A stretch of 36,016 bases of DNA from Escherichia phage T7. Under the pieces are notes generated by a model. That model ran no database searches, was not told the origin of the DNA, and worked only from the letters and a program-made list of their open reading frames with translations. Position numbers and translations under genes: made by a program. The stretch is from the sequence record PV223880.1; one strand, written 5' to 3'. Positions 925-1,621 of this stretch are shown here, in pieces (positions within the stretch are counted from its first letter, which is position 1; each line of letters starts with the position of its first letter).

Positions 925-1320
925 ATGGCTATGTCTAACATGACTTACAACAACGTTTTCGACCACGCTTACGAAATGCTGAAAGAAAACATCCGTTATG
1001 ATGACATCCGTGACACTGATGACCTGCACGATGCTATTCACATGGCTGCCGATAATGCAGTTCCGCACTACTACGCTGACATCTTTAGCGTAATGGCAAG
1101 TGAGGGCATTGACCTTGAGTTCGAAGACTCTGGTCTGATGCCTGACACCAAGGACGTAATCCGCATCCTGCAAGCGCGTATCTATGAGCAATTAACGATT
1201 GACCTCTGGGAAGACGCAGAAGACTTGCTCAATGAATACTTGGAGGAAGTCGAGGAGTCGCACGACAGAAAGAAATTGACCGCGCTAAGGCCCGTAAAGA
1301 ACGTCACGAGGGGCGCTTAG
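925..1320 (+). CDS. 0.3: Ocr anti-restriction protein (gene 0.3) with altered C-terminus: last ~6 residues replaced by 20 residues read from gene 0.7 sequence in a foreign frame
   Basis: Translation [19 protein letters not shown]...[11 protein letters not shown] is Ocr; after EEVEE the frame runs into 0.7-derived DNA ([20 protein letters not shown]). Confidence 0.9.
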
Positions 1321-1619
1321 AGGCACGCAGATTCAAACGTCGCAACCGCAAGGCACGTAAAGCACACAAAGCTAAGCGCGAAAGAATGCTTGCTGCGTGG
1401 CGATGGGCTGAACGTCAAGAACGGCGTAACCATGAGGTAGCTGTAGATGTACTAGGAAGAACCAATAACGCTATGCTCTGGGTCAACATGTTCTCTGGGG
1501 ACTTTAAGGCGCTTGAGGAACGAATCGCGCTGCACTGGCGTAATGCTGACCGGATGGCTATCGCTAATGGTCTTACGCTCAACATTGATAAGCAACTTGA
1601 CGCAATGTTAATGGGCTGA
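1259..1619 (+). pseudogene. 0.7: 3' remnant of gene 0.7 (protein kinase / host shut-off); kinase domain deleted
   Basis: Frame-0 reading ...[44 protein letters not shown]...LMG* is the gp0.7 C-terminus; no upstream start, stop codon at 1233-1235 in that frame; internal ATG at 1386. Confidence 0.8.
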
Positions 1620-1621
1620 TA

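Follow-up and report, generated by a model that had tools for sequence, protein, structure and literature searches.

In the genome deposited as PV223880.1 (Escherichia phage T7), the end of ocr (gene 0.3) abuts the 3′ part of gene 0.7, and the ocr reading frame continues across the joint into DNA that it reads out of frame. This locus raises the question of what kind of event formed the joint, and of why ocr should end in a foreign frame there. We analysed the whole deposited stretch of DNA (the window), which is 36,016 bp long. The left terminal repeat of T7 stands at its start and the right one at its end, so that it represents an entire T7-type genome. Unless stated otherwise, positions are those of the window and features lie on its plus strand.

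Alignment to the T7 reference genome NC_001604 revealed that 1,481 bp, corresponding to T7 positions 1257–2737, are absent. The left arm, from window 1 to 1258, equals NC_001604 with no mismatch, while the right arm, from window 1256, follows T7 from 2737 with an offset of 1,481. Three nucleotides common to both flanks, AGT at 1256..1258, leave the placement of the joint ambiguous to this extent, and the position of about 1258/1259 given in the original prediction corresponds to the rightmost equivalent placement. Window 1–4000 is identical, base for base, to NC_001604 del(1257–2737). This result comes from deterministic alignment, with no statistics involved.

The lost DNA comprises genes 0.4, 0.5 and 0.6A/B, flanked by the final 22 nt of ocr on one side and codons 1–239 of gene 0.7 on the other, in agreement with the earlier claim that the deletion drops 0.4, 0.5, 0.6 and the 0.7 kinase domain. 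E. coli promoter B, which the reference annotation places at T7 1514, also lies within the deleted interval. To the right of the joint, the intergenic region between 0.7 and gene 1 is unaltered at 1620..1689 (T7 3101–3170), as judged from sequence identity and the NC_001604 annotation, and E. coli promoter C is kept there (T7 3113, window 1632). For context, gene 1, encoding T7 RNA polymerase, is intact at 1690..4341.

Relocation of 0.4–0.7 to another site in the genome, which had been named beforehand as the alternative to their loss, is ruled out by blastn and tblastn searches of the window with the deleted segment. The deleted 1,481 bp has no copy elsewhere in the window by blastn, which returned only chance matches of at most 45 nt, and tblastn found no copy in the window of gp0.4, gp0.5, gp0.6A or the N-terminal part of gp0.7 (one match, E = 0.03).

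Two minor features of this region can be set beside these results. A 45-nt stretch of the deleted segment (T7 1428-1472) is 80% identical to retained DNA at window 4367-4410, upstream of gene 1.1. T7 1428-1472 lies near what we take to be the position of the RNase III site between 0.4 and 0.5, and our guess, judged from position only, is that the two stretches share RNase III site-type sequence. Minus-strand open reading frames within 1182–1595 (38–56 aa) were taken as chance, since all CDSs of the T7 reference are on the plus strand and the DNA is unaltered T7 sequence.

The altered ocr is an open reading frame of 131 aa at 925..1320, identified from the list of open reading frames and by translation. 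Its first 111 residues, counting the initiator Met, are those of Ocr. They are followed by 20 residues read out of frame from gene 0.7 DNA and by a TAG stop at 1318–1320. Both the reading frame and the alignment thus bear out the claim that ocr runs into 0.7-derived DNA in a foreign frame. The Pfam domain PF08684 ‘DNA mimic ocr’ is complete in the 131-aa protein (profile 1–101 of 101, residues 3–103, with a score of 214.9 bits versus a cut-off of 25), and over residues 1–111 the sequence agrees at every position with the Ocr chains 1s7z and 2y7c in the PDB. The native acidic C-terminus YEEDEE (six residues, charge −5) is absent, and the 20-aa tail that stands in its place has a charge of +5. 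The net charge of the altered Ocr is −18, versus −28 for the wild type.

An exact match to the 131-aa protein was not found in a collection of 15 billion proteins. In the phage collection, 100% matches to the junction region occur only in PV223881–3, which are derivatives of a genome-reduced T7 called T7-B. The existence of wild relatives with this exact Ocr C-terminus would have made the tail a natural variant; no such relatives were found, and the 20-aa tail is present in the T7-B series only. In two of these derivative records, PV223881 and PV223883, the stretch from the terminal repeat up to gene 1 has no annotated CDS, and the ocr open reading frame at 925-1320 is unannotated. The gene table of the T7-B paper lists gp0.3 as a ‘hypothetical protein’ (Zhang et al., PMC12153263).

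Downstream of the joint, the 3′ part of gene 0.7 that remains (T7 2738–3100) occupies 1257..1619 and by alignment and translation comprises codons 240–359 and the stop codon, with window 1257–1616 translating to gp0.7 residues 240–359. The match to the profile phrog_2828, named ‘serine-threonine kinase’, covers only profile positions 242–366 of 366. The kinase domain of gp0.7 spans residues 1–242, and a toxic, DNA-binding host shut-off domain, whose action is independent of the kinase, spans residues 243–359 (PMC13645617). DNA for the entire shut-off domain (residues 243–359) is therefore present in the window, out of frame with ocr.

The 0.7 frame is interrupted by a TGA stop codon at 1233..1235, within ocr-derived DNA upstream of the junction, and is open from 1236 to 1619, with its own stop codon at 1617–1619. 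The first ATG, GTG or TTG in this frame is the ATG at 1386, which corresponds to gp0.7 residue 283. The original prediction that the 0.7 frame downstream encodes only the C-terminal part, with no start upstream before a stop at 1233-1235 is reached, agrees with the translation, in which the first start lies as far downstream as 1386. From this ATG runs the sole 0.7-frame open reading frame with a start codon, a 77-aa frame at 1386..1619 that covers gp0.7 residues 283–359. Because the upstream sequence agcgcgaaagaATG contains no recognisable Shine-Dalgarno element, this frame is probably not expressed, and the gp0.7 shut-off domain most likely goes untranslated in T7-B.

The left breakpoint coincides with one copy of a direct repeat. 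The surviving left copy of this 13-bp repeat, AGGAAGTCGAGGA, lies at 1244..1256 (T7 1244–1256) as seen by comparison of the T7 flanks, and the end of the deleted segment gives a 13-nt exact match onto window 1244–1256. The right copy of AGGAAGTCGAGGA, at T7 2724–2736, is inside the deleted interval. The left copy encodes ‘EEVEE’ at the end of ocr and the right copy encodes ‘KEVEE’ in gene 0.7. Alignment to the T7 early region, which had been proposed as the way to define the breakpoints and any short direct repeat, therefore yields both: the breakpoints are those of del(1257–2737), and a 13-bp repeat is present at the site.

Loss of one repeat copy together with the intervening DNA is the classical deletion, well known to occur spontaneously in laboratory T7, which removes 1,480 bp (NC_001604 1257–2736). 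Isaev et al. 2020 describe it as ‘deletion H1 of Studier’, at positions 1256–2735 between 12-bp repeats AGGAAGTCGAGG (PMC7261183), and report that its product is an in-frame 0.3-0.7 fusion of 231 aa (PMC7261183). The same deletion is fixed in laboratory-adapted T7 lines, an observation attributed to earlier reports (PMC8923235), and deletions that affect 0.7 are described as frequent when T7 is serially transferred in rich medium (PMC2680503). The mutants of Yuan et al. 2022 (MZ375235, MZ375236, MZ375238 and OL964748–50) also carry the classical deletion, with the 231-aa product annotated as ‘protein kinase’, and a large protein collection contains exact matches to the 231-aa fusion protein on 53 contigs. 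Early-region deletions of this type are thus already known, with repeated reports from T7 lines kept in the laboratory.

The window resembles the H1-type deletion in its left flank, in the repeat, in the loss of 0.4–0.6 and the kinase domain, and in keeping the 3′ DNA of 0.7. However, it departs from that deletion in two respects. The loss amounts to 1,481 bp instead of the 1,480 bp that correspond to exactly one repeat copy with the DNA between, and no 231-aa in-frame fusion is encoded, because the open reading frame ends at 1320 and the 0.7 frame lies at +1 relative to it. Whereas the H1-type product is Ocr(1–111)::gp0.7(240–359), the window encodes an Ocr of 131 aa that ends in a frameshift tail of 20 aa and lacks the shut-off domain. 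The two joints differ by a single A (GAGGAAGTCGC in MZ375235 versus GAGGAGTCGC in the window), and ocr enters a foreign frame because the deletion is one nucleotide longer than the classical one.

Comparable fusions are found in phages of Yersinia pestis. In YpP-Y (NC_047939, 1526-2212), ocr is fused in frame to the C-terminal part of 0.7 to give a protein of 228 aa that keeps the whole shut-off region. In phiA1122 (NC_004777, 906-1328), an in-frame fusion of 140 aa, reading ...NEYLEERIAAHW..., contains the last 32–33 residues of gp0.7 only. Both phages share with the window a deletion that runs from ...NEYLEE(V) of ocr into the C-terminal region of 0.7, with loss of 0.4–0.6 and of the kinase domain. 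Unlike the window, they are wild isolates, their fusions are in frame and their right-hand breakpoints are different. Natural deletions seem to recur at this end of ocr, as at a hotspot.

The joint in the window is nevertheless neither natural nor spontaneous in origin, but is the designed joint of T7-B, a published synthetic chassis with a reduced genome. Zhang et al. (mBio 2025; PMC12153263), whose Table S1 lists T7-B as PV223880, divided T7 into ten cloned segments. Genes 1.4, 1.7, 3.8, 4.3–4.7, 5.3 and 7.7 were removed by recombineering, segment F2 (‘1.5 kb region ... dispensable for T7’, containing 0.4–0.7) was omitted, and the 36.0-kb T7-B was rebooted (PMC12153263). Table S2 of that study gives the early-region interval as 1,257–2,737 (1,481 bp), with coordinates labelled NC_001604 and with Yuan et al. 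2022 cited. The other intervals in Table S2 are 7,609–7,764, 8,198–8,733, 11,268–11,558, 13,279–14,297, 16,484–16,821 and 20,109–20,208 (PMC12153263).

Subtracting these seven intervals, which together account for 3,921 bp, from NC_001604 leaves exactly 36,016 bp, and the window differs from the resulting sequence by 19 substitutions and 0 indels. The six further junctions are located at window 6127|6128, 6560|6561, 9094|9095, 10814|10815, 13000|13001 and 16287|16288, and gene 19.5 is kept, as in the T7-B design. Moreover, the window is equal to PV223881 (T7-B-G) minus a 1,587-bp insert at the gene 7.7 site that carries the staphylococcal lysin LysGH15. The three derivative records PV223881–3 are titled ‘Mutant Escherichia phage T7 clone recombinant’ T7-B-G, -GJ and -J.

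The supplement of the study gives the cloning primer pBAC-T7-S1-3-F (CAGAAGACTTGCTCAATGAATACTTGGAGGAAGTCGAGGAGTCGCACGACAGAAAGAAAT), whose 60-nt phage part corresponds to window 1217..1276. In this part, a 40-nt overlap with the F1 end is followed at once by the 20 nt with which F3 begins (T7 2738 onward), with the joint reading ...CAGAAGACTTGCTCAATGAATACTTGGAGGAAGTCGAGGA|GTCGCACGACAGAAAGAAAT. Because the F3 forward primer carries 40 nt of F1, the two segments are linked without intervening DNA at T7 1256|2738. The designers’ placement of the joint is accordingly window 1256|1257, where T7 1256 meets T7 2738. Since the primer contains the joint, the junction was specified by a synthetic oligonucleotide. 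The identification of the window as T7-B is based on the tables of the paper, this primer, the length of 36,016 bp and the three derivative records; the seven deletions, the 36,016-bp length (of T7-B itself) and the primer-defined joint are alike in the window and in T7-B with its derivatives, and no difference was detected.

The 19 substitutions relative to NC_001604 are found at window positions 4830, 7781, 11458, 15859, 18854, 20167, 20218, 20317, 20425, 23114, 23862, 23969-23970, 25337, 27870, 31054, 31333, 31337 and 33488. Of the 17 located in the CDSs that were checked, 16 alter the encoded residue and one is silent (gene 16, A399); the other two, at T7 24088 and 24139, lie in the gene 10B extension. 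Examples of the changes are T118A, K211E and R212Q in gp17, G19D and Q55S in gp14, and D197N in gp5.

Knowledge of the primer bears on two other explanations for the joint. Conceivably, an H1-type deletion arose spontaneously in laboratory passage and either was resolved imprecisely or later lost 1 nt in the GGAAG run. The breakpoints do fall at the known repeat and events of this kind recur in laboratory lines, where selection could have favoured, for example, better Ocr function or removal of the toxic shut-off domain. Indeed, BREX-escape mutants of the fusion phage gain early stop codons in the 0.7 part (PMC7261183). However, the exact junction is written in pBAC-T7-S1-3-F, the interval is the tabulated design 1257–2737, the other six deletions also match their tabulated intervals exactly, and PV223881–3 all share the junction. 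We rejected a spontaneous repeat-mediated origin, given that the primer encodes the junction and that the repeat product would differ from it by one base, and consider it extremely improbable.

Alternatively, the phage might truly carry the in-frame 1,480-bp deletion, with one A lost from the consensus through a sequencing or assembly artefact. In favour of this, the window and the common in-frame junction differ by just one A, in GAGGA(A)GTCG, although a run of two As is not error-prone. Moreover, the primer itself lacks that A, and the window agrees with three independently deposited derivative genomes. The primer sequence and the agreement of PV223881–3 exclude a sequencing error, and we assign this explanation virtually no probability. 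The designed joint of T7-B is left as the source of the junction, and its design copies the classical repeat-mediated deletion.

Why a design copied from the classical deletion should be one base longer can be examined by comparing T7 reference genomes. The T7 genome of Yuan et al., MZ375234, is 39,938 bp, versus 39,937 bp for NC_001604; the additional base in MZ375234 is an A, at position 1897. This A lies in the gene 0.6 region (GCAAGGAACAAG in MZ375234 versus GCAAGGACAAG in NC_001604), inside the deleted interval. MZ375235 equals MZ375234 del(1257–2737) and, equally, NC_001604 del(1257–2736). A length of 39,938 bp is shared by many T7 genomes from laboratories, and coordinates from genomes like MZ375234 are shifted by +1 relative to NC_001604 downstream of position 1897.

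The coordinates 1257–2737 were probably taken from the CRISPR genome-reduction study of Yuan et al. 2022, whose mutants carry the classical deletion across the 13-bp repeat, of 1,480 bp and with an in-frame 231-aa fusion. Used literally on NC_001604, 1257–2737 takes one base more and leaves 111 ocr codons followed by 20 out-of-frame codons and a stop. The main text of Yuan et al. 2022 mentions neither 1257 nor 1481.

The same shift was sought in the other six T7-B deletions by comparing them with the source-study mutants MZ375276 and OL964748. For 1.4, 1.7, 4.3–4.7 and 5.3, the mutants fit the 39,938 numbering, one base to the left, whereas the window fits literal NC_001604 coordinates. For example, the 1.4 deletion spans 7608–7763 in the source mutants, which is the exact open reading frame, versus 7609–7764 in the window. 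Together with 0.4–0.7, this makes five T7-B deletions out of seven that show the +1 shift; for 3.8 and 7.7, neither form of the junction is present in MZ375276 or OL964748. From these sequence comparisons we infer that the off-by-one stems from coordinates carried from the 39,938-bp to the 39,937-bp numbering. Because the extra A falls inside the 0.4–0.7 interval, this deletion would have become one nucleotide longer and lost the frame, while the downstream deletions would merely have been shifted by one nucleotide.

A further possibility is that the frameshift was deliberate, the extra base having been removed so that the toxic shut-off domain would not be made as an Ocr fusion. The authors of T7-B found the early segments hard to clone and thought gp0.7 potentially toxic (PMC12153263), and the shut-off domain is indeed highly toxic (PMC13645617). 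However, their paper is silent on any truncation of ocr or choice of frame, calls the region ‘gp0.4–0.7’ and treats gp0.3 as a hypothetical protein, and the derivative GenBank records have no CDS at 925–1320. Moreover, a +1 shift would be purposeless at the four other deletions, such as that of 1.4, which was moved off the exact open reading frame. We therefore regard a deliberate frameshift as very unlikely. Our overall reading, that the window is the T7-B genome with F2 omitted, and that coordinates from the mutants of Yuan et al. were used literally on NC_001604 at the cost of one extra base, is almost certainly correct. The new point is a modest one, namely that a one-base coordinate shift accounts for the foreign frame and touches other deletions too.

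Published variants of Ocr give an indication of what the altered protein may do. Ocr109 and Ocr99, which lack the last 7 or 17 residues, still inhibit cleavage by EcoKI (Roberts et al. 2012, PMC3439906). The in-frame 0.3-0.7 fusion protects against EcoKI, but against BREX only partly (PMC7261183). BREX-escape mutants of the fusion phage, which have early stops in the 0.7 part or make Ocr110 plus 11 foreign amino acids, regain anti-BREX activity (PMC7261183). All these variants still block EcoKI restriction, and the published data mark the native acidic C-terminus as dispensable. The altered Ocr resembles Ocr109, Ocr99 and the BREX-escape variants in that the Ocr core is kept, the acidic C-terminal heptad is lost and the foreign tail is short or absent. 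It differs from the published variants in that its tail is 20 aa long, with a net charge of +5.

Because the Ocr domain is whole and the published truncations and short-tail variants are active, the altered protein is expected to be active as well. The 131-aa Ocr most likely blocks type I restriction and probably is active against BREX, where it possibly performs better than the classical fusion. On the same grounds, the exchange of the tail is probably irrelevant to anti-restriction, although the basic +5 tail could interfere, unlike the shorter tails of published variants. With regard to gp0.7, T7-B should lack the functions in anti-defence that depend on the kinase, as well as the shut-off function.

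T7-B was rebooted in strain GB05-dir (PMC12153263). The host given for the derivative records PV223881–3 is BL21(DE3). Neither GB05-dir nor BL21(DE3) is known as a restricting background, and the functions of Ocr and gp0.7 would therefore not be under selection in these strains. It is unlikely, in our estimation, that either the Ocr variant differs from both wild-type Ocr and the classical fusion in its BREX or type I spectrum or in the triggering of Ocr-sensing defences, or the 77-aa fragment from ATG 1386 is made. If any of these were true, T7-B would be phenotypically distinct from the mutants on which it was modelled.

The locus carries little biological weight in itself, as it belongs to a published laboratory construct and the type of deletion has already been reported. 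The case does show that a switch between T7 references of 39,937 and 39,938 bp moves engineered junctions by one base, which here turns an in-frame fusion into a frameshift. If the shift holds throughout, all seven T7-B deletions differ from the source that is cited for them. Those who use T7-B work with a phage in which the T7 kinase, a reported broad anti-defence factor, and an expressible shut-off domain are missing, and in which a predicted Ocr with an exchanged tail is present, unannotated in the deposited records. This gene content could affect the host range of T7-B on natural isolates that have restriction, BREX or retron defences.
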